IMG/VR virus record: IMGVR_UViG_2617270964_000015
DNA: 15,512 nucleotides
Strand: one strand, 5' to 3'
From: a virus
Taxonomy: Duplodnaviria > Heunggongvirae > Uroviricota > Caudoviricetes
Shown here piece by piece: positions 1 to 14,267 of the stretch. A program made the translations under genes and the position numbers. Within the stretch, counting starts at the first letter, position 1; every line of letters begins with the position of its first letter. A model generated the notes under the pieces. The model made no database searches. It had not been told where the DNA came from and saw only the letters and a program-made list of their open reading frames with translations.

Positions 1-375
1 GACGAACAGTGGGGCTATGTCGGGGCTAAATCGCGCCAGCGCTGGCTGTTTTACGCGTATGACAGTCTCCGGAAGACGGTTGTTGCGCACGTATTCGGTG
101 AACGCACTATGGCGACGCTGGGGCGTCTTATGAGCCTGCTGTCACCCTTTGACGTGGTGATATGGATGACGGATGGCTGGCCGCTGTATGAATCCCGCCT
201 GAAGGGAAAGCTGCACGTAATCAGCAAGCGATATACGCAGCGAATTGAGCGGCATAACCTGAATCTGAGGCAGCACCTGGCACGGCTGGGACGGAAGTCG
301 CTGTCGTTCTCAAAATCGGTGGAGCTGCATGACAAAGTCATCGGGCATTATCTGAACATAAAACACTATCAATAA
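1..375 (+). CDS. insB: IS1 transposase InsB reading frame, 5'-truncated by the window edge
   Basis: Open frame from base 1 to TAA at 373-375; the ORF track reports the internal ATG at 109 (88 aa) but the frame is open from base 1 and matches InsB throughout. IS1 transposase is made as an InsA-InsB fusion by frameshifting, so an independent start is not expected. Confidence 0.85.
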
Positions 376-390
376 GTTGGAGTCATTACC
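1..390 (+). mobile_element. IS1: IS1 insertion sequence, 3' portion (element continues beyond the left window edge)
   Basis: Frame-1 translation from base 1 reads [44 protein letters not shown]...HYLNIKHYQ, which I recognise as the C-terminal part of IS1 InsB. Stop TAA at 373-375 is followed by the IS1 right terminal inverted repeat atcaataagttggagtcattacc at 368-390. Left end and any target-site duplication are outside the window. Confidence 0.9.
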
Positions 391-1257
391 GCCAGTTAGC
401 GCGCCATTTACACGTATTTCTATATTTTTCTCAGATTCAGAAAGCAGAGATATTATTCTTTTTGCACAGAGTTCGTCTATTTCATATAGATTCATTATTT
501 TCTTACCAAGAACAAACTCAATTTTTACAGGCAAGTCTTCAAAACTATTAATCATCTGATCGTCATTTTCATCATAAATCTCACTCTCGTTTTTTTTGAT
601 ATCAAAATCATCTGTTTCAAAATCTTCCTCGTACTCAAAATGATCAGCCATTTTTAACTCCTCTGGATAAATTAAATCAAAAATTTTTGTATTATAAATA
701 ACCGCATAAGCCAAATTATTTGAGATTAATAAAACATCACCAACTTCAATATCAACAAGACTTCTGTAACATGTTTTACTAAATCCAATTACAAAATGAA
801 TGGAGCAATATAACGATTTTTTGTCTAACGCTGGAGCGTTTCCGTATTGGCAGACTGTGACTTTATCTAACCAAAGATTCAATTCCCCTCTCCATATTCT
901 TATTAGTGGTTGAGCAGGGCTCAATACTCCATCAAATACTTTACCTACGCGCAAACGATTATATTTTAGTTCAGGATGCTTTAGATTTAACGGGGAACTG
1001 GATAAACTGAGCCATTCCCCTATTAACCTTTCCGTTTCTGGCATCAAAGCCATCCCAGCGAGCTCAGATGAAATTAAGGGAAATATTTCTCCAAGCAATA
1101 CCCATCCAGACCAGCTGCCACTCTCTTCTGCTATCGGTAGCCATTTAGCACTAAATTCGGGCATTAATAATGCAACATCTTCGCCATTTTCTTTCCAATT
1201 TTGAAAAGTGGTTTCAAACGTATGAGTGTTTCGATTTACTTTCCTCAGACCGAACAT
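391..1257 (-). pseudogene. Type III secretion SctQ/FliN-like protein with SpoA domains, 3' end cut by the IS1 insertion
   Basis: ATG at 1257-1255 with an AAGGA-like RBS upstream. The translation contains two SpoA-like segments, LVDIEVGDVLLISNN and DLPVKIEFVLGKKIMNLYEIDELCAKRIISLLSESEKNIEIRVNG, the second aligning closely to the FliN/SpaO C-terminal SpoA domain. The ORF-track frame (310..1257) continues into IS1 sequence, so the last ~27 codons are IS1-derived and the native C-terminus is lost. AT-rich by eye. Confidence 0.45.
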
Positions 1258-1388
1258 TAACTTTCATCCTTCTGATCGTTTTCGAATTTGCTTTCATTTT
1301 CTTGCTCCTCATAAGGCTGATGTCGTTGTCCTTGTCGTTCATCTTGCTCAGTCAATACCCAACGTTGTGCTGTAACTCATTATGAAAA

Positions 1389-2999
1389 CTATTTAATTCC
1401 CTCATCATTGATAAGATTGGACATCTCTTTCAACATGAGAGTCATTGAAGCTTTCGACCAATTTAGCGGAATGATAGGGCTTGGCGCTTCATGCAAAGTT
1501 CCCGACTTGTGGATATAGTTATAGCTTTCGGGAAGTGCCATTTCTGGTACGCTCCTGCCATTTGCACCAATCATATTCTCGCCTGTTATTTGGGCCAATG
1601 ATCTATTCATAAATTGCACTGAGTCATTCAAATACTCTTCTTTTCTTGATTCTTTATAAACAATTGCTGCTGATTTTGCATACCATGAGTCAAAAAACCA
1701 TTCTGCTTCTGTTGATGGAATGAAGCTCTTTTCTCTTTTCACATGTGAATTTTGATCGGTATCGGTTTTAATATCATTGAACCAAAAATTTGCCGACTGA
1801 TAATTATCCTTCTCGTATCTTTTTATACCATACGGACCTGCTAGTTTTTTAACTATTTTTAGAACCTGCTCTTTTCTTCTGGTGTTTATCTTTGCAAGAT
1901 TTGCAGGATAAATAACATTAAGTAAAGCCGCATCGGCTTCTCTGTAATGTTTATCTTTTTCCAGATAACCTGGGGATTCTCCCCCTAAATCAAGCTGTAA
2001 CGTTATTCTTTCATAACCTTTATCTATGAGGTGGTTCAACCTCGTTGTTGAAAGAGGTTCATCCAGTTCATTGGCTTTAGCTTCGCGTAGTAAATCAGAG
2101 ACAAAAACAGAGTCTTTCTTCGAGAGTAAGTTCGACAAACGTTCCAGTCCAGAGGTCACCAGTGCAACGGAAGATGTGTTTAATCGGGCATCTTCTTCCC
2201 ATGCTCCGGAATCTTCCATAACATAGAAATTGGCTTTATCCAGATAAGCAATCAGCAGCGCAACCGATTTTAATCGGTCACCTTTTTGCCAATCTTCAGC
2301 GTTAATTGTACCAGTGTCGATTGCTTGTATAAGGAGATCAAGATAAAGACCTAACGCATCATTTTGTTTATGGTTCCACAGCTGCGGCTTGCCTTCTTCC
2401 TGCACATCTGCCATCACGGGGAAGTTGCTGTCAAATCGGATATGCACAGCATTCATTTGCCCGGGAACTCCATCCAGTCGTTTGGGGTTGCTAATGACGT
2501 CCTGCATCCGCTTAATCTGGTCGGGCGTAGACATATAATCCCACAGGGTGAGCAGAACCTTTTTTGCGGCTACACTATTTCCCTGATCTGATACTAATGC
2601 CATATAGCCCCATAAACTATCCCTCAGCCAGACAGCATCATAGTGGGTTTCTGCCGCTGTTTTGTCATCTTCGAAAGTAGAAGCAAGAATAAATGTTCCC
2701 CAGGGTTTCTCCGTCAACGTTAACTTTCGTGTGTTTTCTGTTAATGTTAACAACCCTTGAATTTCGTCTTTGGTATAGTGGCTCTTTATTTCATTTTTTA
2801 ATTTGGCTGAGTGAATCAGAAGACGATAATTAGGGTACTTATCTGGATTTAACGATAAATAACTTTTATCTGTTGCTGCCCCCGTGGAATTAAGAATGTT
2901 AAATACAGATTCACTCGTCACTTCTGCCCCTGTCGCCTGGCATGTGCCGCACGAAAATATACCAGCGAGCAGAAGAGTTAATGCAGATTTCCCTTTCAT
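1389..2999 (-). CDS. Glycoside hydrolase family 15-like (glucoamylase-like) exported protein or lipoprotein
   Basis: Long ORF (track 1389..3041 begins at a GTG). The ATG at 2999-2997 gives MKGKSALTLLLAGIFSCGTCQA, a signal peptide with a possible lipobox cysteine. Internal DSGAWEED resembles the GH15 catalytic-region signature (S-G-x-W-E-E). AT-rich gene. Confidence 0.6.
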   Translation of the reverse strand: MKGKSALTLLLAGIFSCGTCQATGAEVTSESVFNILNSTGAATDKSYLSLNPDKYPNYRLLIHSAKLKNEIKSHYTKDEIQGLLTLTENTRKLTLTEKPWGTFILASTFEDDKTAAETHYDAVWLRDSLWGYMALVSDQGNSVAAKKVLLTLWDYMSTPDQIKRMQDVISNPKRLDGVPGQMNAVHIRFDSNFPVMADVQEEGKPQLWNHKQNDALGLYLDLLIQAIDTGTINAEDWQKGDRLKSVALLIAYLDKANFYVMEDSGAWEEDARLNTSSVALVTSGLERLSNLLSKKDSVFVSDLLREAKANELDEPLSTTRLNHLIDKGYERITLQLDLGGESPGYLEKDKHYREADAALLNVIYPANLAKINTRRKEQVLKIVKKLAGPYGIKRYEKDNYQSANFWFNDIKTDTDQNSHVKREKSFIPSTEAEWFFDSWYAKSAAIVYKESRKEEYLNDSVQFMNRSLAQITGENMIGANGRSVPEMALPESYNYIHKSGTLHEAPSPIIPLNWSKASMTLMLKEMSNLINDEGIK

Positions 3000-3306
3000 A
3001 AAATATTCCATCAATCGTTTGTTAAAAGCGTAGATAACCACTTATTTAACAACTTGAAAATAAGGTGTTTTACCTGGGTTGTTACAAAAGGATTGCATTG
3101 CGTAAACGCTTTTTATTTACAACAAAATGGGGAAATATTACGGCGATTGCGAAAAGTCTGAAGCGATTGAATTAAGATAATATAGAAAATCAGATACAGC
3201 AAAAATGGCAGATTGATGAGGCGAAGATAAATTGGAGCGGCGAAGGGAACAATACAACAAGCAACAAGACCAGTAATAAAGGCACATTCTCGAGTTCTAA
3301 AATAGA

Positions 3307-4203: not shown

Positions 4204-5256
4204 TTAGTACCCTCGAGCAGAGTAGACACGGGCCATTCCTGCCCAATGCGAAAACAGGATTTCATACTTGACTGGATTGTAATTAATGCTGCCATCCAGG
4301 GCGGCCGCATTCCATGCCCCGTCTGAAATAGTACGGTCGCTGGCTGTTTTCCCCCACTCGACAATGCTCCTCGCTATGCCCTGAACACATGCGCGATTTA
4401 ATGCCGTCTCACCAACATATGCCCCAGCGTCTGAACATGACTTCATACTCAGATCCAGGCTATTCCTGAAAAATTCCAGCCCGGCAATTGACATAAACCA
4501 GCGACCATTAGCGTATGCCACGCCATCGTTTCTTATTGTGAATTTAATAGTGTGCAGAGCATCAACAATCATCTGTTGCTCAGCTGTTGGATTCTGCCAT
4601 AACACGAGATCAATCGTTTTTTCAGAAGCCTTAGACTCTTCTTTCTCACGCTTGATGCGTTCGTCACGTTCAGCCCGGTATCGCTTTTGGTTTTCGTTAC
4701 GTAACTTCTGGTATTCAGAGGCGAGCTTATCCCGTTCCTGTGCAAAAGTAGCCAGACTCGTTTTAAAATCGCTTTCGTTGACTGTAACAAGCCCCATGCT
4801 CCAGCGATCATTTCCATAATCAGTATAGATAGCGTCAACTTTTGCCGGATTGCTCAATGCTATGGCTAGGTTAACCAGAATCTTCGAGGCTTCCTCACCA
4901 GTTTTGGAGCTATTGTCAAACCTGGATAGTTCCCCGACTCCATTGCCCCCATATTCATGGTAAGCAGCGTAAAACACAGGGATTGTCTGAGGTTTACTAT
5001 TAACCGCCTGGATAATACTTTTATCGTCGCACGTCAGCCCGTCCCACTTAAAGAGACTGCCACCACCGCTTTTGTATGCCTCACAATCATCGATACCCAG
5101 ACGAACCAACGCAGTCCAGCCGGGGCGCTTCTTATACTTGTCGCTTTTGGCGATATGCATTTGTGTTAACGCTTTTGCGGGATCGATCTTCCCCGCGGTG
5201 CAGCCTGTGAACATTAACGCCAAAGAGGTTAAAGCAATGCGATTGATTAAATTCAT
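4204..5256 (-). CDS. Putative lipoprotein with a central coiled-coil segment
   Basis: ORF 4204..5289; the internal ATG at 5256-5254 gives MNLINRIALTSLALMFTGCTAGK, an N-terminal signal with a lipobox-like cysteine. The middle is rich in charged residues (ERDKLASEYQKLRNENQKRYRAERDERIKREKEESKASEK), typical of coiled coil. Start at 5289 is also possible. Stop TAA at 4206-4204. Confidence 0.6.
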   Translation of the reverse strand: MNLINRIALTSLALMFTGCTAGKIDPAKALTQMHIAKSDKYKKRPGWTALVRLGIDDCEAYKSGGGSLFKWDGLTCDDKSIIQAVNSKPQTIPVFYAAYHEYGGNGVGELSRFDNSSKTGEEASKILVNLAIALSNPAKVDAIYTDYGNDRWSMGLVTVNESDFKTSLATFAQERDKLASEYQKLRNENQKRYRAERDERIKREKEESKASEKTIDLVLWQNPTAEQQMIVDALHTIKFTIRNDGVAYANGRWFMSIAGLEFFRNSLDLSMKSCSDAGAYVGETALNRACVQGIARSIVEWGKTASDRTISDGAWNAAALDGSINYNPVKYEILFSHWAGMARVYSARGY

Positions 5257-5335
5257 TATCCTTGTGTCCAGAGTTAGGTCGACCGGCATAGCTTACCCGT
5301 GGAGAAATGAATCGTCGAATGAGTTTGGTCGGGAG

Positions 5336-6007
5336 TTATTCCACCAGCAAAAATGGCGTTGCCCGGTCAATAACGTTGATGCCAATTAACGAGCTAACAT
5401 TGCGACCATTCACAATGCTATCCCGTTCAAGCAAATGCGCTATTTTTTCTACTTCATACCAGTATTGAGCCATGAGGGCTTTGGTCTTTTCAACGAGTTT
5501 AGAAAGCATTAACTCCCTGTTAATTCGCTTATCTGTAGCGCAGATTAAATCGAGCATGTCATTTACGTTAGCCATGTCATAGCGATGAGGCAGCGAATAC
5601 TTTTTGTTGAAAATATCGTTGTTTTCGTAAAGGGCTTCGCTTACTGGTCCGGCGAGGGATACAAAAGCGGCCTTTATTGCATCGCGCTTTATACCATCCG
5701 CATAGTAACGTATGAAAGGGATAACTTTACCATCCCGCCCAACTACACCAGATTTACTATCCCGCAAACGCCCGAGATCGTGGCTGTGAATTATGCTGTG
5801 TTTAACAACGCCCAAACACTTGGCCTCATGTACATGTTCGCCAGCAACGTAACCGTATTCATCCATAACGGCGATAACCTGTACATCTAAGCGAATAAGC
5901 CATGCAGCTACTGCATGGCCCGCTTCGTGGAATGCTACACATCGTTTACCATCGCCTATCCAGTTATAGAACATTTCCTGCTCATATATCTGGTGAATGG
6001 CGCCCAT
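5336..6007 (-). CDS. Stand-alone FtsH/peptidase-M41-like HExxH zinc metalloprotease domain protein (no AAA ATPase domain)
   Basis: ATG at 6007-6005 overlaps the upstream stop (TAATG). The translation carries CVAFHEAGHAVAAWL, with the HEAGH codons at about 5914-5928 on the minus strand, resembling the FtsH protease-domain zinc motif (HEAGHA). Downstream SLAGPVSEALYEN and NVNDMLDLICATDK resemble later FtsH protease-domain segments. At 223 aa it is too short to include an ATPase module. Confidence 0.6.
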   Translation of the reverse strand: MGAIHQIYEQEMFYNWIGDGKRCVAFHEAGHAVAAWLIRLDVQVIAVMDEYGYVAGEHVHEAKCLGVVKHSIIHSHDLGRLRDSKSGVVGRDGKVIPFIRYYADGIKRDAIKAAFVSLAGPVSEALYENNDIFNKKYSLPHRYDMANVNDMLDLICATDKRINRELMLSKLVEKTKALMAQYWYEVEKIAHLLERDSIVNGRNVSSLIGINVIDRATPFLLVE

Positions 6008-6183
6008 TACGCGCCCTCGCTTGCCAGTGAGGCCAGAGCCTTAGCCATGAGGCCGCGGGCAATCTGGTGAACGGTGGGAGCGACGCCGAGATTGGAGCGC
6101 TGGCGTTCACGTTCCTGAATGTTGCGTATGGCCTGCATCTGCTCGGCGGACAGCAGGACCGGCTTAACGTTTGGCTTTCTCAT
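6007..6183 (-). CDS. Small basic protein (~58 aa), translationally coupled to the protease-domain gene
   Basis: The ORF-track frame 6007..6276 begins at a TTG (6276-6274, shown as M). The ATG at 6183-6181 gives MRKPNVKPVLLSAEQMQAIRNIQERERQRSNLGVAPTVHQIARGLMAKALASLASEGA; an ATG at 6207-6205 is also in frame. Stop TAA (6009-6007) overlaps the downstream ATG. The true start is uncertain. Confidence 0.35.
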   Translation of the reverse strand: MRKPNVKPVLLSAEQMQAIRNIQERERQRSNLGVAPTVHQIARGLMAKALASLASEGA

Positions 6184-6358
6184 TCTGTTCACTCCAGAAC
6201 CGTGCATTTGATTCGTTGAGTTGCTGCAGGTTGCGACTCTGGCGATCGAAGTTATTGCGTGCCTTTGCCGCTTCAAGATCCTGACGGGTCAGCATCGGGC
6301 GGTGGGCGCGCTGTGGGTTGCCTGCGGCTAATTTCGGGTCATAGATAGGCATGCTCAT
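6164..6358 (-). CDS. Small hypothetical protein (64 aa)
   Basis: ATG at 6358-6356 sits 6 nt after the stop of the 183-aa gene and is preceded by AAAGAG. The 3' end overlaps the start region of the 58-aa ORF in another frame by about 20 nt. Confidence 0.4.
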   Translation of the reverse strand: MSMPIYDPKLAAGNPQRAHRPMLTRQDLEAAKARNNFDRQSRNLQQLNESNARFWSEQNEKAKR

Positions 6359-6364
6359 ATCTCT

Positions 6365-6916
6365 TTAGTGTTTTTTGCCCCAGAAGGTGGCGTTGTCAGC
6401 ATTGATGCTGCGGATTGCGTCTCCTGTAGAAATTATTTTCGGAGCGATATTGTTTGCTTTCATGTAGTCGCCAACCTGCTCGAGTATATCGATAGCCTGA
6501 TCCAGCTGGATTTCTGACATTGGGGTAGGGTGTACGGCGCTGAACGCCTCAGCAGGGGCGTAGCGCAGCACATCGAGCGCAACGATGCGCGGGTCGGCGT
6601 CGGGCAGTGCTGAATCGTATTTCGGCGCTACGGCACGTACCAGACGCATGAACTCAGCATTCATTGCTATCGGTGCCGTGGAAGTAGCAGACGTGCCATT
6701 CAAACCGCGGGAAATCATATCACTGTCGCGGGTGTACATGCGGCGCAGGCGGTCGCCGGTGGCGATGCGCATTTTGCGTTCTTTCTCGAGTGTCGTTGCA
6801 AGACTTGCAATGATGGTCGCAACGGTTCCGCTGCACTGGAACTCCTCTTTACTGCCGTCGGCATACGTCACCACGCCATCTTCGCCAGTCACGGCGATGT
6901 TTGTAATATCTTTCAT
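6365..6916 (-). CDS. Hypothetical protein (183 aa), first gene of a four-gene cassette
   Basis: ATG at 6916-6914 with GAGG 8 nt upstream on the coding strand. Stop TAA at 6367-6365. No motif I can assign. Confidence 0.6.
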   Translation of the reverse strand: MKDITNIAVTGEDGVVTYADGSKEEFQCSGTVATIIASLATTLEKERKMRIATGDRLRRMYTRDSDMISRGLNGTSATSTAPIAMNAEFMRLVRAVAPKYDSALPDADPRIVALDVLRYAPAEAFSAVHPTPMSEIQLDQAIDILEQVGDYMKANNIAPKIISTGDAIRSINADNATFWGKKH

Positions 6917-7030
6917 CGGTCAGACCTCAGTATGTTCTATCGGATATTTATGTTTCATTATACGCAATAATGATATTTATTGTTGCAATTATTGCAATGT
7001 GTTTTTCTTGTGATAACATGCAAATTGAGG
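6917..7030 (-). promoter_or_regulatory. Promoter/operator-like region upstream of the 183-aa gene
   Basis: AT-rich. A perfect TATAAT on the minus strand (plus-strand attata at 6957-6962). Two adjacent palindromes: caataa-tgatat-ttattg (6965-6982) and ttgcaat-t-attgcaa (6983-6997). The best -35 candidate, ttgcaa, lies 20 nt from the -10, which is too far, so exact promoter geometry is unresolved. Confidence 0.4.
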
Positions 7031-7087
7031 TCAGAACTCAATGAGTTGGTTCCAAACATGGTTACTGGTACACAAAAGCCCGTGCGT

Positions 7088-7115
7088 CTCCAGCGCGGGC
7101 TTTTTACTGGCACAA
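7088..7115 (+). terminator. Intrinsic terminator-like hairpin (plus strand), A-run before and T-run after
   Basis: gcccgtg / cgcgggc stem (7 bp with one G-U pair), 9-nt loop, followed by ttttt at 7111-7115 and preceded by aaaa. Confidence 0.45.
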
Positions 7116-7123
7116 AAAAGCCG

Positions 7124-7147
7124 GGAAAAATCCCGGCCTCCGTCACT
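7124..7147 (-). terminator. Rho-independent terminator of the ProQ-like/PerC-like operon
   Basis: Minus-strand reading: stop TGA of the PerC-like gene, then gccggga-tttt-tcccggc (perfect 7-bp GC-rich stem, 4-nt loop; plus coordinates 7130-7147), then tttttt (plus-strand a-run 7124-7129). Confidence 0.65.
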
Positions 7148-7969: not shown

Positions 7970-7974
7970 CGTTA

Positions 7975-8312
7975 CAACTGTCTACCAACTGTCTACTGAT
8001 ATAATTTATTGATTTATTTCATATTATTCACACATGAATAAAAAACAACCTATCAACTATCTACCAACTGTCTACCGCATTAATGCATTGATAATTAATG
8101 ATTTTTACTAAATGGTAGACAGAGTAGACAGTTAAAAGAGAAATTTTAAAAATGAACCCTTAACTATCTGTTTTTATATACCCCCCGTGGTTTAGGAATA
8201 TAGAAACAACTGTCTACTCTCTACCACATTTAAAAATATCTATACAATTCAATGTATTAATTGGTAGATAGTTGGTAGAGGGTTAAGTATTACTGTCTAC
8301 CAACAGTCTACC
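7975..8312. repeat. Iteron array: about 12 copies of a 10-11 bp motif CAACTGTCTAC(C) in six tandem pairs, both orientations; putative replication origin
   Basis: Direct pairs at 7975-7996 (caactgtctac x2), 8054-8075 (caactatctac + caactgtctac), 8207-8226 and 8292-8312. Inverted pairs at 8114-8133 (ggtagacagagtagacagtt) and 8262-8280 (ttggtagatagttggtagag). AT-rich stretches lie between pairs at about 8000-8050 and 8135-8200. The array sits directly 3' of the primase gene. Confidence 0.6.
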
Positions 8313-8339
8313 TTTACGTTTCAGCTTATAAATTTCGTA

Positions 8340-10145
8340 TTATGTTCTGTCGTTAATCCCTGTTGCTGCTGGCAACCAGCCATCAGCATCATCATCTAAC
8401 AGAACATTTGTTATCACTCGCCCTTTATCCGGGCCTTTAGTGCATTTAGCCCGCTTATACTCCTTTCCGTATTCCGCCATAGCACCCGGCATATCAGTGC
8501 CAAAGCGTTTCAGTGATACTGGTTTTCCCAGACCATGCGCTGACATATAGGCTAAATAAGCATGATACAGATATCGCCTCGGGCTAAATGGCACTATTCC
8601 CGCATTACCCACCATCATTCCTTCACATTTAACCAACGACATCAGATATCCGCAAAAGTCCACCAGTGAATCACCCTCACGTTTTATCACCAGAGCCTCT
8701 TCTGATTTCTGCTGCTCATATAACAGACGTCTGGCTTCATCCTGGTCAGAAAAACGAGTAAGCAGGTGGCGAATCACTACCGCCAGTTCGCCTTCTATTT
8801 TTTCCACCAGCATGGGATCGCGTTCGTTCTCCGGTACGACCTCAGAGAAATTAAATATCACCCTACGACGCGAGATCCCCCCGCTTCGGTCACTGAATGA
8901 CATGGCGTTATTGTTTACTGCCAGCACTACCGCCGGAATACGAGTGGAGTATGGGGCTTTATGTTTCGGGTCGATCGCCACCTTGTCACCACCAGTAATT
9001 GCCTTAATTCCTGCACCATCACCAGCGTAGCGGGTCATATCCGGCATGATAATCAGCGAAAAGCCAACGACTAACGCGCGTTCCCTTGCGTCTTCCAGCG
9101 CCTTCATGCTTGCCGATACTGTATTGGCCTTACCCGCCAGCATGGTACAAATCTCCGCCATCACACTTTTACCGCTTCCGCCCGGCCCCGTTACCTCAAG
9201 GAATAACTGCCAGTCGTACCGGTTCGCCAGTACCATGAATAATGCCGCCAGTACGCGATCTGCTTTACGATCGTTATTTGCCACCGAACGACGCAGCCAC
9301 TTCCAGAAATTCGGCGCATGTGTTGCCAGTGTTTCCCCCTCTGCTGGTGGGCTGAACGGTAATTCACTGGCATTTAACAACCAGTCATTTTTGTTATGCT
9401 CCCGAAAATTTCCTGTCCGGGTATCAAATACCCCGTTACTGAATCCAATAAGATTCCTGTCTGCCCCGCCCATAACAGGCAGGCTCAATTTCATTGTGTC
9501 TACGGCAAATTTAATGGCGTTTTGCGAATAACTGATTCCAGCATCAATAAAAATCTTCGCCATAGACCGCTGGAGTTCCTTATCAGATACAGGCTCCCAG
9601 ACAATTCCGTTGTAATGGTGAACTACATCAGAATCGTCATTTATAGCCAGTGCCCTTCCATAATATTCAAGCAATACTTCCCCTCTCTGGCTGGCTCCCA
9701 TCTGATTTAGTGCTGGCCTGGGTAGGTCACTATTTTTTGTGACTAATTTCATCGCTGAAACTTCCCCGCGCTCTGCCTGTTCGCGGATCCGTTGCAGGTA
9801 ATCGCGCCAGTTCTCCGGCTCCCGGTCGGTGATGCCTTTGTATAATTTCGCCTCCTGTACGCCAGCCAGTGCCAGTTTTTCAGCGATAGCATTGATCTGG
9901 ATTGGTTCGATCTCCCCCGCGAGATAGACACGCGCAAAGCGGCGTTCATCGTCGACAATGCGGATATTCGCCAGGTCTGCCAGTTGCTTTGGCCCCAAGT
10001 AAACAGGTGGTACGTTATCGCCGTGCTTCCGTCCTTCGCTTTCAATCCAGTGTTGAGCATGGGAGTAAGCATCCGTCCCGGCAAAAATGATTACCTCAGT
10101 GAATTTATCCTTCGGCTGATATTTCAAATTCGGTGCGTTTTTCAC
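8340..10145 (-). CDS. P4-family phage/plasmid primase-like replication protein with P-loop NTPase module
   Basis: 601-aa ORF with Walker A GPGGSGKS. Overall resemblance to satellite/PICI primase-replication proteins is from memory only. Start is GTG at 10145-10143 with GGAGG just upstream, overlapping the upstream gene's stop (GTGA). Stop TAA at 8342-8340. Confidence 0.8.
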   Translation of the reverse strand: MKNAPNLKYQPKDKFTEVIIFAGTDAYSHAQHWIESEGRKHGDNVPPVYLGPKQLADLANIRIVDDERRFARVYLAGEIEPIQINAIAEKLALAGVQEAKLYKGITDREPENWRDYLQRIREQAERGEVSAMKLVTKNSDLPRPALNQMGASQRGEVLLEYYGRALAINDDSDVVHHYNGIVWEPVSDKELQRSMAKIFIDAGISYSQNAIKFAVDTMKLSLPVMGGADRNLIGFSNGVFDTRTGNFREHNKNDWLLNASELPFSPPAEGETLATHAPNFWKWLRRSVANNDRKADRVLAALFMVLANRYDWQLFLEVTGPGGSGKSVMAEICTMLAGKANTVSASMKALEDARERALVVGFSLIIMPDMTRYAGDGAGIKAITGGDKVAIDPKHKAPYSTRIPAVVLAVNNNAMSFSDRSGGISRRRVIFNFSEVVPENERDPMLVEKIEGELAVVIRHLLTRFSDQDEARRLLYEQQKSEEALVIKREGDSLVDFCGYLMSLVKCEGMMVGNAGIVPFSPRRYLYHAYLAYMSAHGLGKPVSLKRFGTDMPGAMAEYGKEYKRAKCTKGPDKGRVITNVLLDDDADGWLPAATGINDRT

Positions 10146-12133: not shown

Positions 12134-12982
12134 TTACACATGGCTGTTTTCCTCCATGCGACGGGCTAACCAACGCTGCGAAAGACGAATTAATTCAGCT
12201 TTCCGCTGGTGGTAGTCCTGGCCTAACTCAATCAGCGTGATATTGCTCTGCTCAAGGTAAGAAAGGTGCTCAAGCTGCAACGTGCTCATGTGGTCGCGTG
12301 GTTCGCCTGTAATGCCGTTCGCCTGCGCCCACTGTTTTGCAGTCATGCCACCCAGCACGATACGCGCCAGCATATTGGCTTCCGTGGTGTAGTGGTGCTG
12401 GAGTGTGTTTTTACCCAGCTCAGCCCGGTATGCTTCCAGCGCGGCGCACATCGGCTTAAAGTAGCTGGCAACGGTGATACGGGCTTTCAGTTCCCGGCGT
12501 AACGCTGCGGAACGCACTGGCGCTACCTTGTGTAGCTCCTCCTCGCATTTGATGAAGTACTGACGAACGGCACGGCCCTGTTCGGTGCGTTCGACCATCG
12601 CCAGTTCTTTTGCCATGTTCGTGGAGATCAAATAGTCTTCACTGCGACGATCACCGCCGCGCTTTGTTGTCCAATCAGAATCAAACTGTTCAATATTTAC
12701 ACTTTGGTTCCCCCGTTTCGGGGAATCAAAGTACAAATTTTCTACAACTTTAAAATCCACGCCATTTTTAAATCCGTACTCATCAATACGTCCTTTAATC
12801 CAGGTAGTGAAATCACGGCCTCCCCCGAGCGCCTTATGCAACGCTCTGGCGCTAACAATATTGGTTTCACGCCCGCCAATAACGCCGGAAATAACCGGGA
12901 TAATTTCGCCGAAATTTTGCAGATTCTGGTTTTCAGGCCGAACTAAGCCCTGCCCCTGTACGGGCGTTTTTCGCTGTTTCAT
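12134..12982 (-). CDS. AntA/AntB-family phage antirepressor-like protein
   Basis: ATG at 12982-12980 with AGGAG 5 nt upstream. N-terminal region ARALHKALGGGRDFTTWIKGRIDEYGFKNGVDFKV ... MAKELAMVERTEQGRAVRQYFIKCEE matches the AntA-domain pattern I recall (DF-TWIK-RI--YGF, AKELAMVER--G---RQYFI-CE). Confidence 0.65.
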   Translation of the reverse strand: MKQRKTPVQGQGLVRPENQNLQNFGEIIPVISGVIGGRETNIVSARALHKALGGGRDFTTWIKGRIDEYGFKNGVDFKVVENLYFDSPKRGNQSVNIEQFDSDWTTKRGGDRRSEDYLISTNMAKELAMVERTEQGRAVRQYFIKCEEELHKVAPVRSAALRRELKARITVASYFKPMCAALEAYRAELGKNTLQHHYTTEANMLARIVLGGMTAKQWAQANGITGEPRDHMSTLQLEHLSYLEQSNITLIELGQDYHQRKAELIRLSQRWLARRMEENSHV

Positions 12983-13317: not shown

Positions 13318-13380
13318 TATTTTTTAAATTAAATATTAAAATTTAAATTAAATACAATTTAATTCAATTTAAATAATTTT
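13318..13380. repeat. AT-only low-complexity repeat (AATTTAAAT-type units) spanning the 3' end of the cargo gene and the alpA upstream region
   Basis: ttttttaaattaaatattaaaatttaaattaaatacaatttaattcaatttaaataatttt, with multiple overlapping direct and palindromic AAATT/AATTT units. Confidence 0.6.
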
Positions 13381-14267
13381 CTGTACTCCTCTGGGATAAC
13401 CAAGCGGAAATCATCTTTTGTTTCCACTCCTGTTTTGCCAATTCCTTCTGAACAAAGAATATTTCTAATTGTACCTACTTTAGGCGTATTAACAGCATCA
13501 ATAGAATAAAGCAAGGAGTGTATTTTATTGATAATTAATGTCGTATGGCTCCACGGATAAGAAATACGAGTAGCTTTCGCTACATCAACAATAACATTTC
13601 GATAGATATTTCTAGGCTTACCCACCATTTTGTTAATTGTTTCGCAACTACGTGAATTCACCCCATCCATTTTACTTTTAATAAAATCGGGATACTTTTC
13701 CATAGATGATTTGACTTGGTTTAATCTCCAATTTATTGTCACCCCACCATTTTTAAGCAAAAATAATTCACTTTTAGTTATAACTAAATCGCTTGTTTTA
13801 ATATTTATACCGCCATTAATTAAAATTACTCGTGGGTTATAATCCTCCAAGTTATAGTGCGTAAAAGATGGAAGCCTCACTGGATATAGCCTATCAACAA
13901 CAAATTCTTTTACGTTATCAAAATCAGCATCCATCTTAAAAAGATTGGATATTCGGACAGAAAAAAGACCACAGGCCTTAATGACTTTTCTATGTTTTAA
14001 CTTTCCATTAGATTCGCAACTAATAACTTCACTTATTTTTGCATAGTTAGAGCGATGTCTGAATTTTTTACTTCTTGTATTAGAAAATATTTCTTTATTA
14101 AATTTACCACGAACAGAGACCCTTCCTTCTTCAATAAGCTCTGACAAATCTATATTTATTGCTACATCAACCATTCCGATTGATATATAGTGAAATAAAT
14201 CATAAACATCTCTATTTATCTCAAAAGCTGCTTTATTCAGAGTGTAAAACAATCTTTCAGGAAGCAT
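13359..14267 (-). CDS. Hypothetical AT-rich cargo protein (302 aa) between int and alpA
   Basis: ATG at 14267-14265 with AGGTGA upstream, only about 30 bp after the integrase stop. Uninterrupted 302-codon ORF in clearly AT-rich DNA (by eye about one-third G+C, against about half in flanking int and alpA). Asn/Ile/Lys-rich; no catalytic motif I can name. Confidence 0.6.
   Translation of the reverse strand: MLPERLFYTLNKAAFEINRDVYDLFHYISIGMVDVAINIDLSELIEEGRVSVRGKFNKEIFSNTRSKKFRHRSNYAKISEVISCESNGKLKHRKVIKACGLFSVRISNLFKMDADFDNVKEFVVDRLYPVRLPSFTHYNLEDYNPRVILINGGINIKTSDLVITKSELFLLKNGGVTINWRLNQVKSSMEKYPDFIKSKMDGVNSRSCETINKMVGKPRNIYRNVIVDVAKATRISYPWSHTTLIINKIHSLLYSIDAVNTPKVGTIRNILCSEGIGKTGVETKDDFRLVIPEEYRKLFKLN

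Follow-up and report, generated by a model that had tools for sequence, protein, structure and literature searches.

The 15,512 nt virus sequence IMGVR_UViG_2617270964_000015 from IMG/VR, the whole of which is referred to here as the window, carries on its minus strand a cassette of four co-directional genes at 5336–6916, the last of which encodes a short protease-like protein with a HEAGH motif. A first-pass annotation of the window, made from the sequence alone, had proposed these genes as one undescribed system, and all four open reading frames (ORFs) are present where it had placed them. In order of transcription they are p183 (6365–6916; 183 amino acids, aa), p62 (6164–6352; 62 aa), p58 (6007–6183; 58 aa, a small basic protein), and the M41 protease gene (5336–6007; 223 aa), which encodes a predicted zinc metalloprotease domain without an AAA ATPase or a membrane anchor. 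All four are annotated in RefSeq, where the last is labelled 'peptidase M41 family protein'. The second gene had been given as 64 aa, and that ORF does exist if translation starts at 6358 (6164–6358), but RefSeq begins at the second ATG, which makes the product 62 aa. For p58 the ORF list holds an 89 aa version started at TTG; the 58 aa ATG start is favoured by RefSeq and by the alignment of homologues. The overlap of p62 and p58 in different frames, which is 20 nt, and the TAATG in which the stop codon of p58 overlaps the start codon of the M41 gene are both seen in the sequence, as had been noted.

Comparison with homologues that are 45–99% identical at the protein level and come from several genera gives differences at codon positions 1/2/3 of 38/22/98 for p183, 10/3/28 for p58, and 23/9/48 for the M41 gene. 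A third-position excess is present in p62 as well, although weaker than in the other three. This pattern indicates purifying selection, and because of it all four look like real genes.

The strong terminator pair that had been described 5' of the cassette is borne out. At 7060–7145 on the minus strand, after PerC, there are two GC-rich hairpins, each followed by a U run, and two inverted repeats (I1 and I8) coincide with them. The region folds with a free energy of -37.7 kcal/mol (z = -3.7), and none of 200 shuffled sequences folds as well. The second hairpin is kept 5' of p183 in seven related loci. These tandem intrinsic terminators end the upstream ProQ-PerC unit and insulate the cassette from the primase, ProQ, and PerC genes.

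Between the terminators and p183 lies an AT-rich stretch of about 140 bp (6917–7059, minus strand), the putative promoter and operator region of the cassette. The palindromes attributed to it are there: TTGCAAT-A-ATTGCAA at 6983–6997, an inverted repeat GCAA-N15-TTGC at 6964–6986, which is a candidate operator, and a further inverted repeat, GCAATAAT-N16-ATTATTGC. The promoter itself is putative. A candidate is formed by TTGCAA (6997–6992) and TATCAT (6975–6970) with a 16 nt spacer, and there is a TATAAT at 6962–6957, all on the minus strand; σ70 consensus sequences are not enriched in the region, with 6 found against 6.5 expected from shuffles.

The earlier reading of the fourth gene as an FtsH/M41-type gene too short to include the AAA ATPase is borne out by sequence comparison. 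On its own, the 223 aa sequence scores 21.2 bits against Pfam M41, which is below the gathering threshold of 29.9, and its match in the PDB is AFG3L2 at E = 0.006. A profile built from the family and its distant relatives finds 16 PDB matches, all of which are FtsH, AFG3L2, YME1, or FtsHi, the best being T. maritima FtsH at E = 2.9e-12 over residues 17–204, the whole protease domain. The AlphaFold2 (AF2) model of the protein is of low confidence (predicted local distance difference test, pLDDT, 62; predicted template modelling score, pTM, 0.62). When it is compared with the PDB by Foldseek, FtsH-family protease domains take all of the nine top places, although the matches are weak (E 0.3–2, template modelling score about 0.4), and its top match in BFVD is a 214 aa 'Peptidase M41 domain-containing protein' of an uncultured phage. 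There is no AAA domain in the 223 aa protein according to Pfam, and against the model for FtsH proper (TIGR01241, NCBIfam) it scores 15 bits where the cut-off is 600, the membrane anchor and AAA+ module being absent. The ImmA/IrrE families, which had been suggested as another possible affiliation, are not matched: there is no M78/ImmA hit in Pfam at E≤0.1 and no RmrA, ImmA, or CapP-type match in PADLOC, and the protease is M41-like instead.

The HEAGH motif occupies residues 27–31, and the predicted catalytic and zinc-binding residues are H27, E28, H31, and D144, with E124 in a 'G..AE' motif of the FtsH type. All of 16 close and 12 distant homologues have H27-E28-A-G-H31-A; among the distant relatives G120 and E124 (in 'LAGPVSE') are invariant and D144 is nearly so. 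The sequence 'LGGPVAEDIV...GNEHDIRE' of one short relative, P0082, aligns with 'LAGRAAEEIV...GAENDFRQ' of T. thermophilus FtsH, and in alignment A2 D144 falls in the Asp column of 'GAENDF' while E124 aligns with the 'AEE' motif of FtsH. We take this Asp of FtsH to be its third zinc ligand, and D144 is assigned by alignment as the predicted third ligand of the window protein. D109, the candidate given by a single-sequence phmmer comparison with AFG3L2, is not conserved, and D144 was preferred after the distant relatives had been aligned. The profile-to-FtsH alignment is likewise register-shifted across the insertion. The 223 aa protein is, as judged from these alignments, a predicted stand-alone protease domain of the M41/FtsH type with an intact active site and no AAA module.

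The likeness to FtsH (T. maritima, 2CE7) and human AFG3L2 (6NYY) covers the whole protease domain, with HEAGHA, 'G..AE', and the Asp ligand, and the low-confidence helical model is matched first by FtsH-family chains. Unlike FtsH, the window protein has neither a transmembrane anchor nor an AAA+ unfoldase, it has an insertion of about 35 residues after the active-site helix, and it is encoded by a phage satellite, whereas FtsH is the product of a housekeeping gene.

A hidden Markov model search of 1.84 billion representative sequences found 171 relatives at E≤1e-3. The best 150 of these 171 are 49–402 aa long, and one exceeds the Pfam M41 threshold, at 59.8 bits. A word-indexed profile search added more than 1,000 further clusters; those listed are of 99–310 aa, mostly with a precomputed PF01434 assignment. 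Short M41-only proteins of 150–280 aa, from genomes, metagenomes, and uncultured phages, share the protease-only architecture and the same motifs, but are only 21–30% identical to the window protein. They do not explain its mechanism, because no described function was found for any of them. The neighbourhoods of a few were sampled and proved varied and uninformative, with an IS element, an integrase, a BON-domain gene, or small ORFs nearby. In one metagenome contig (L030, 4505–5621) a 206 aa M41 protein follows co-directional ORFs of 60 and 76 aa, a superficial echo of p62 and p58.

The window is a phage satellite of E. coli of the phage-inducible chromosomal island (PICI) type, resembling the helper-embedded satellites, at tRNA-Gly. 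On the minus strand the genes run in the order tyrosine integrase, a 302 aa ORF, AlpA, AntA/AntB, an Icd-like region, DUF4222, a D5-type primase, 11 bp iterons (CAACTGTCTAC), ProQ/FinO, PerC, the cassette, and a lipoprotein gene. In a 99.9% identical locus of E. coli EC02 (L001) tRNA-Gly adjoins the integrase. The identification rests on the integrase, AlpA, AntA, DUF4222, primase, iterons, ProQ, and PerC being in PICI order next to tRNA-Gly; there are co-oriented integrase, AlpA, Bro/AntA, and primase genes with an origin, and no phage structural or lysis genes. Gram-negative PICIs and helper-embedded satellites are divided into integration, Bro, replication, and late zones (bioRxiv 10.1101/2022.07.18.500453; PMC11773190), and the first operon to follow the replication module is the cassette. 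The four-zone order is shared with these elements, as is a dynamic zone after the replication genes which holds captured late genes of the helper. Such capture into the 'late zone' has been described (Tommasini et al. 2022, bioRxiv 10.1101/2022.07.18.500453), in a paper whose main text has no mention of M41, peptidase, or protease. The window element differs from the helper-embedded satellites in lying at a tRNA gene and not inside a prophage. No packaging or redirection gene (TerS, Rpp, or capsid) was found after its replication module; sister elements carry DUF2280, DUF5681, or helix-turn-helix 171 aa genes, which are small-terminase-like.

Comparison of loci shows that the cassette is a modular operon: p183 and p62 form a pair, p58 may or may not follow them, and then comes a cargo slot of varying content, which in the window is filled by the protease gene. 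It is not one obligate four-gene system, because its components dissociate across loci. Something similar to the cassette is carried by 58 of 5,426 complete E. coli genomes. All four genes are together in 21 of the 58, and 26 + 3 (about 29) have nothing but the M41 gene and the 3' part of p58. In strain CFS3292, for example, the order is primase, origin iterons, terminator, promoter, p58', M41, PerC, with p183 and p62 absent. In another five of the 58, p183, p62, and p58 are present at about 75% identity and the M41 gene has no match at the DNA level; in one of these, ECONIH5, the protease region looks disrupted beside IS5.

Dissociation in the other direction is seen in 23 IMG/VR loci that were chosen through p183. 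The protease is present in 10 of them, and the p183-p62 pair is found without it in the remaining 13. p58 follows p62 in 13 loci of the Escherichia/Salmonella type and in none of the 10 of the Klebsiella type. Of the 13 loci without protease, 12 were examined, and in 11 of these the slot between p62/p58 and the small-terminase-like gene is filled by tail-tip genes, namely those for a protein of about 355 aa, a secreted protein of about 114 aa, and an Apex-like spike, which Dit-like, Pam3_gp18, and tape-measure genes may accompany. In L035, the remaining one of the 12, there is a tape-measure-like and a Pam3_gp18-like gene. Examples of the tail-tip slot are L003 (8761–11944), L005 (8790–11044), and L036–L057. 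Many of these satellites are embedded in prophages whose own genes are homologues of these tail-tip genes, and in the 23 loci the tail-tip genes never occur together with the M41 gene. A reading of the Klebsiella genes 3' of p183 as varying defence genes was rejected, as they are tail-tip genes captured by the satellite, with homologues in the surrounding prophages.

The four-gene system that had been proposed thus does not hold as a unit: the genes do co-occur beyond the window, in the 21 genomes given above, but are separable elsewhere. Nor is the protease specifically paired with the small basic protein, as had been suggested, since M41 occurs without p58 in Klebsiella-type elements, and at least six loci have p58 but no M41. 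A scan of genome contigs, in which most matches were to the HEAGHA of FtsH, yielded at least six loci. Obligate co-occurrence of M41 and p58, as in type II toxin-antitoxin systems, is not seen in these loci.

A second clade of M41 proteins, 24–33% identical to the window protein, occupies the same slot 3' of p58 in L042 and L045, and elsewhere follows an SSB or ProQ gene without p183, p62, or p58 (L009, L023–25). The contig of L009 (CACSKA010000004.1) is labelled Chryseobacterium sp., yet it looks like an enterobacterial satellite, with integrase, AlpA, AntA, primase, SSB, and M41 genes, and its M41 protein and the L025-type protein share about 66% identity; the organism label may reflect contamination or mislabelling.

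The block of promoter, p183, p62, p58, and M41 is also present in a different satellite backbone at the yicC/dinD site, with about 96% nucleotide identity. At this site, in strains E2348/69 and DEC5B, the block comes directly after the integrase and is followed by a convergent gene pair. The pair of E2348/69 (L002 7014–8881; NC_011601.1 4068813–4070680) scores as RosmerTA (RmrT 8e-16, RmrA 3.5e-125). The convergent pair of DEC5B (L058 4882–6723) differs from it in size. The Penades laboratory has reported that PICIs have immune genes at either end, 5' or 3', and in a region downstream of pri (He et al. 2024, PMC11364771). Two of these locations are taken by the cassette, which in the window comes after pri and the origin and in E2348/69 and DEC5B is proximal to the integrase. 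These positions give a higher prior to a phage-directed accessory function, although the other cargo seen in the slot consists of tail genes and not of immunity genes.

Among the small proteins, the strongest functional hint is for p58. An inverted repeat G(C/A)AA-N15-TTGC begins exactly 70 nt (69 nt in L041) 5' of the first start codon in every p58-bearing locus, that is, in the window and at the same position in L002, L015, L016, L020–22, L033–L047, and L058, and it is found in none of the loci that do not have p58. The spacing of 70 nt holds even where p58 is itself the first gene, as in CFS3292 and in L033, from which p183 and p62 are deleted. Because of this perfect correlation p58 is a candidate autoregulator, and is probably an operator-binding regulator of the operon rather than a protease partner; the correlation suggests this but does not prove it. 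The alignment of p58 homologues has 31 invariant columns. A ribbon-helix-helix fold, suspected by eye, received 0.3% probability from hhalign against a manually written Arc/Mnt/CopG alignment, and nothing was found for p58 in Pfam or the PDB.

The gene that follows p58 differs between loci, being M41, a 197 aa gene, or tail-tip genes, and M41 stands there no more often than tail-tip genes or the 197 aa gene. The 197 aa gene lies between p58 and M41 in L020–L022 (8704–9297) and L034 (8410–9003), and is a homologue of a gene of the head-tail region of the surrounding prophage. It is translationally coupled to p58, as is the protease gene in the window and in L033.

p183 and p62 are an inseparable pair of satellite-specific proteins: p62 adjoins p183 in all 23 of the IMG/VR loci and in all other p183 loci. 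p62 is small and charged (family c9), with a conserved ...FD..S..LQ..N.SN..FW..., and has no family, PDB, or phage match. p183 is named 'XRE family transcriptional regulator' in some RefSeq records, but the name is not supported, as neither Pfam and NCBIfam nor a structure search detected a helix-turn-helix in it. For p183, p58, and p62, identity with Rpp, a packaging protein of PICIs, was considered and set aside, there being no credible PDB sequence match; the p183 profile gives only spurious hits (E≥1) against the PDB and p58 and p62 give none, a result that covers Rpp if its chains are in the PDB copy used.

None of the four proteins, nor the lipoprotein, matches a model in PADLOC-DB 2.0 at E≤0.1, and neither do three other M41 variants and a p183 homologue at E≤0.01, in a library dated 2023; prediction of known defence systems, as had been suggested for this region, thus gives nothing for any component, and no gene matches a known toxin-antitoxin family. 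None of the four, nor these variants and the p183 homologue, matches a PHROG or has a tblastn match in 50,697 phage genomes; M41 has no match in 72,556 plasmids. The cassette does not, then, consist of familiar phage structural or replication genes, no such family, PHROG, or phage-genome match having been found. The M41 gene recurs only in satellites. In the literature searches there was no mention of these proteins or of an M41 protease in satellites.

The tail-ward neighbour of the protease gene is a lipoprotein gene (4204–5289, minus strand, 361 aa), 46 nt downstream, with the lipobox LALMFTGC at the N-terminus of its product and no family match. It had been taken as the boundary of the cassette. 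It does lie downstream, but there is no terminator in the 46 nt gap that would separate it from the M41 gene, and it is probably co-transcribed with the cassette. Given this short, terminator-free gap and the fact that the gene travels with the block in DEC5B, it may be the fifth gene of the transcription unit. The lipoprotein is 57–73% identical across the satellite family and its position varies: it is found 3' of an M41-type gene in the window, DEC5B, and L025 (8783–9802), and near int in Klebsiella-type and several IMG/VR elements (for instance L004, 2311–3381).

Beyond the lipoprotein gene the island contains debris, an IS1 fragment, and genes of the ygeQ/ETT2 region. In this distal flank (1–3041) a fragment of the IS1 transposase (109–375, plus strand) abuts a 315 aa type III secretion gene of the FliN/SpaO family (310–1257), and a full-length 550 aa GH15-like gene is present at 1389–3041; RefSeq lists the EC02 counterpart of this gene as a pseudogene, ygeQ, that IS3 interrupts. 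A stretch of low GC content (0.35) at 7970–8340, between the primase and ProQ genes, has many copies of the 11 bp iteron on both strands, and is probably the replication origin of the satellite, as judged from its sequence; a comparable field of iterons (GTAGGGATA) occupies this position in L033. The 302 aa ORF between int and alpA (13359–14267, minus strand; GC 0.32–0.36) has no Pfam, NCBIfam, or PADLOC match, and is a candidate accessory or defence gene because it is in the int-proximal slot, where E2348/69 has RosmerTA and DEC5B a similar convergent pair. The C-terminal part of the AntA/AntB-family protein (12134–12982, minus strand) has a weak PADLOC match to the candidate PDC-S22 (E = 6e-10, residues 188–271). 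No RNA family of Rfam is present in the window.

The reading that best accounts for these observations, to which we give a probability of about 0.5, is that the cassette is a modular satellite operon in which the stand-alone M41 protease cleaves a phage protein, p58 autoregulates the operon, and p183 and p62 have a separate role. In it the description of the locus is far more secure than the proposed target. p58 would bind the GCAA-N15-TTGC operator and so control its own operon. The protease would work alone, as an ATP-independent endopeptidase, on a specific and accessible phage protein, of a helper or a competitor, or less likely on a host protein. Cleavage would hamper the reproduction of the phage, which would favour the satellite or the host, as do other PICI accessory genes, while p183 and p62 would serve a satellite-specific purpose of their own. 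Several points weigh against this reading. The structure model has a pLDDT of only 62, and folded proteins may be poor substrates for an M41 domain that has no unfoldase. No recognised defence system was found in the slot of the 23 p183 loci examined, the alternative cargo being tail-tip genes, and for that reason a role in the formation of satellite particles or the exploitation of the helper fits equally well. The correlation between p58 and the operator comes from related sequences and could reflect shared ancestry. Finally, the element may be decaying, since no small-terminase gene can be recognised in it and IS1 and pseudogene debris lie directly beside it.

Of the other explanations, the next in probability places the protease within the satellite life cycle, where it would process or remove a virion, packaging, or assembly protein of the helper or the satellite and so let satellite particles form, with p183 and p62 as morphogenesis or packaging factors. 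The operon does lie between the replication module and the small-terminase-like genes (DUF2280, DUF5681, helix-turn-helix 171 aa) of the sister elements, many of which are embedded among the late genes of a helper; the slot alternates with captured tail-tip genes, and the phage head-tail gene homologue stands between p58 and M41 in L020–22 and L034. We nevertheless consider this explanation unlikely, since the known phage maturation proteases are, to our knowledge, of serine or other types and not M41, a relative is encoded in none of the 50,697 phage genomes, the window and the CFS3292-type elements have no small-terminase-like gene beside the protease, and the block in E2348/69 adjoins int, away from any packaging gene. 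It is also rather unlikely that the four genes are a single anti-phage defence or toxin-antitoxin-like system, in which the protease would be the effector or switch and the others a sensor, an inhibitor, or a labile partner. The insulated promoter, the tight packing, and the TAATG junction would suit such a system, and the whole block has moved between two unrelated satellite backbones at about 96% identity. It is found in PICI immune regions (PMC11364771), beside RosmerTA in E2348/69, and defence systems that contain a protease exist, for example the ImmA-type RmrA of Rosmer (PMC10440598). Against it, the components dissociate in every combination, p183, p62, and p58 precede tail-tip genes as often as they do the protease, and there is no PADLOC model for any component or for the three other M41 variants. 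The resemblance to the Tai genes, which are in PICI immune regions and likewise have no match in DefenseFinder or PADLOC (PMC11364771), is one of position, and no sequence relationship could be shown; the homologues of Tai are mostly phage-borne (for example phi80 orf63), whereas the cassette proteins, judged via the phage search, are not.

A switch of the ImmA/ImmR type, in which the protease would cleave a DNA-binding repressor (p183 or p58) and so derepress genes of the satellite or helper, is improbable. The XRE name of p183 in RefSeq would be in keeping with it, as would the association of p58 with an operator-like repeat and its translational coupling to the protease in the window and L033, but p183 has no detectable helix-turn-helix, and p58 and the protease are each found without the other (at least six loci and the Klebsiella-type loci, respectively). 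ImmA/IrrE (M78) and the RmrA of RosmerTA are similar in being HExxH zinc proteases on mobile elements with small regulatory neighbours; the window protein differs in belonging to M41, matching no RmrA or ImmA model, in having no fused or adjacent helix-turn-helix protein that could be found, and in having neighbours that are not obligate partners. The least probable explanation is that the gene is directed at the host, acting for example on FtsH substrates or co-assembling with host FtsH, or is a decaying remnant. The homology to the protease domain of FtsH, the presence on the island of other host-directed regulators (PerC and ProQ), and the degradation of its distal end by IS elements would be consistent with this. 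The conservation of the catalytic residues and the purifying selection across homologues of 45–99% identity from several genera are not, and nor is the recurrence of the gene in satellites only.

A broader and more speculative proposal is that M41 proteases without an AAA module are an unrecognised class of satellite-borne effectors, used against phages or for hijacking them, which act alone or docked on host FtsH or another unfoldase. Two clades only about 25–30% identical are retained in the same slot of enterobacterial satellites. We regard the proposal as a tentative possibility. Such effectors may cleave a specific phage protein, for example a terminase, tail, scaffold, or lysis-lysogeny factor.

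The finding is not categorically new, because the satellite type, the M41 family, and short M41-only proteins are already in the databases. What is new is an orphan M41 protease, in two divergent clades, which recurs in a defined cargo slot of satellites and is absent from the sequenced phages and plasmids searched, together with the resolution of the supposed four-gene system into separable modules, in which p58 pairs with a conserved operator. This corrects the unit of study, which becomes the protease alone and with p58 and not the four-gene block only, and makes the p58/operator pair a concrete regulatory element. Phage satellites are now seen as important vehicles for genes that act against phages or hijack them, and new mechanisms such as Tai and Rpp have repeatedly come from their accessory slots; in the literature searched, no description was found of an FtsH-family zinc protease without an unfoldase as a factor of this kind. 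Should the protease have no phage phenotype, the locus would be ordinary satellite cargo. As it stands, it is a reasonable but unproven candidate for a phage-interference factor. If a phage protein is indeed cleaved, proteolysis by orphan M41 enzymes would be added to the known modes of phage interference and a first function would be given to a large family of orphan M41 domains, and similar reasoning might hold for the more than 1,000 metagenomic clusters of M41 domains that stand alone.

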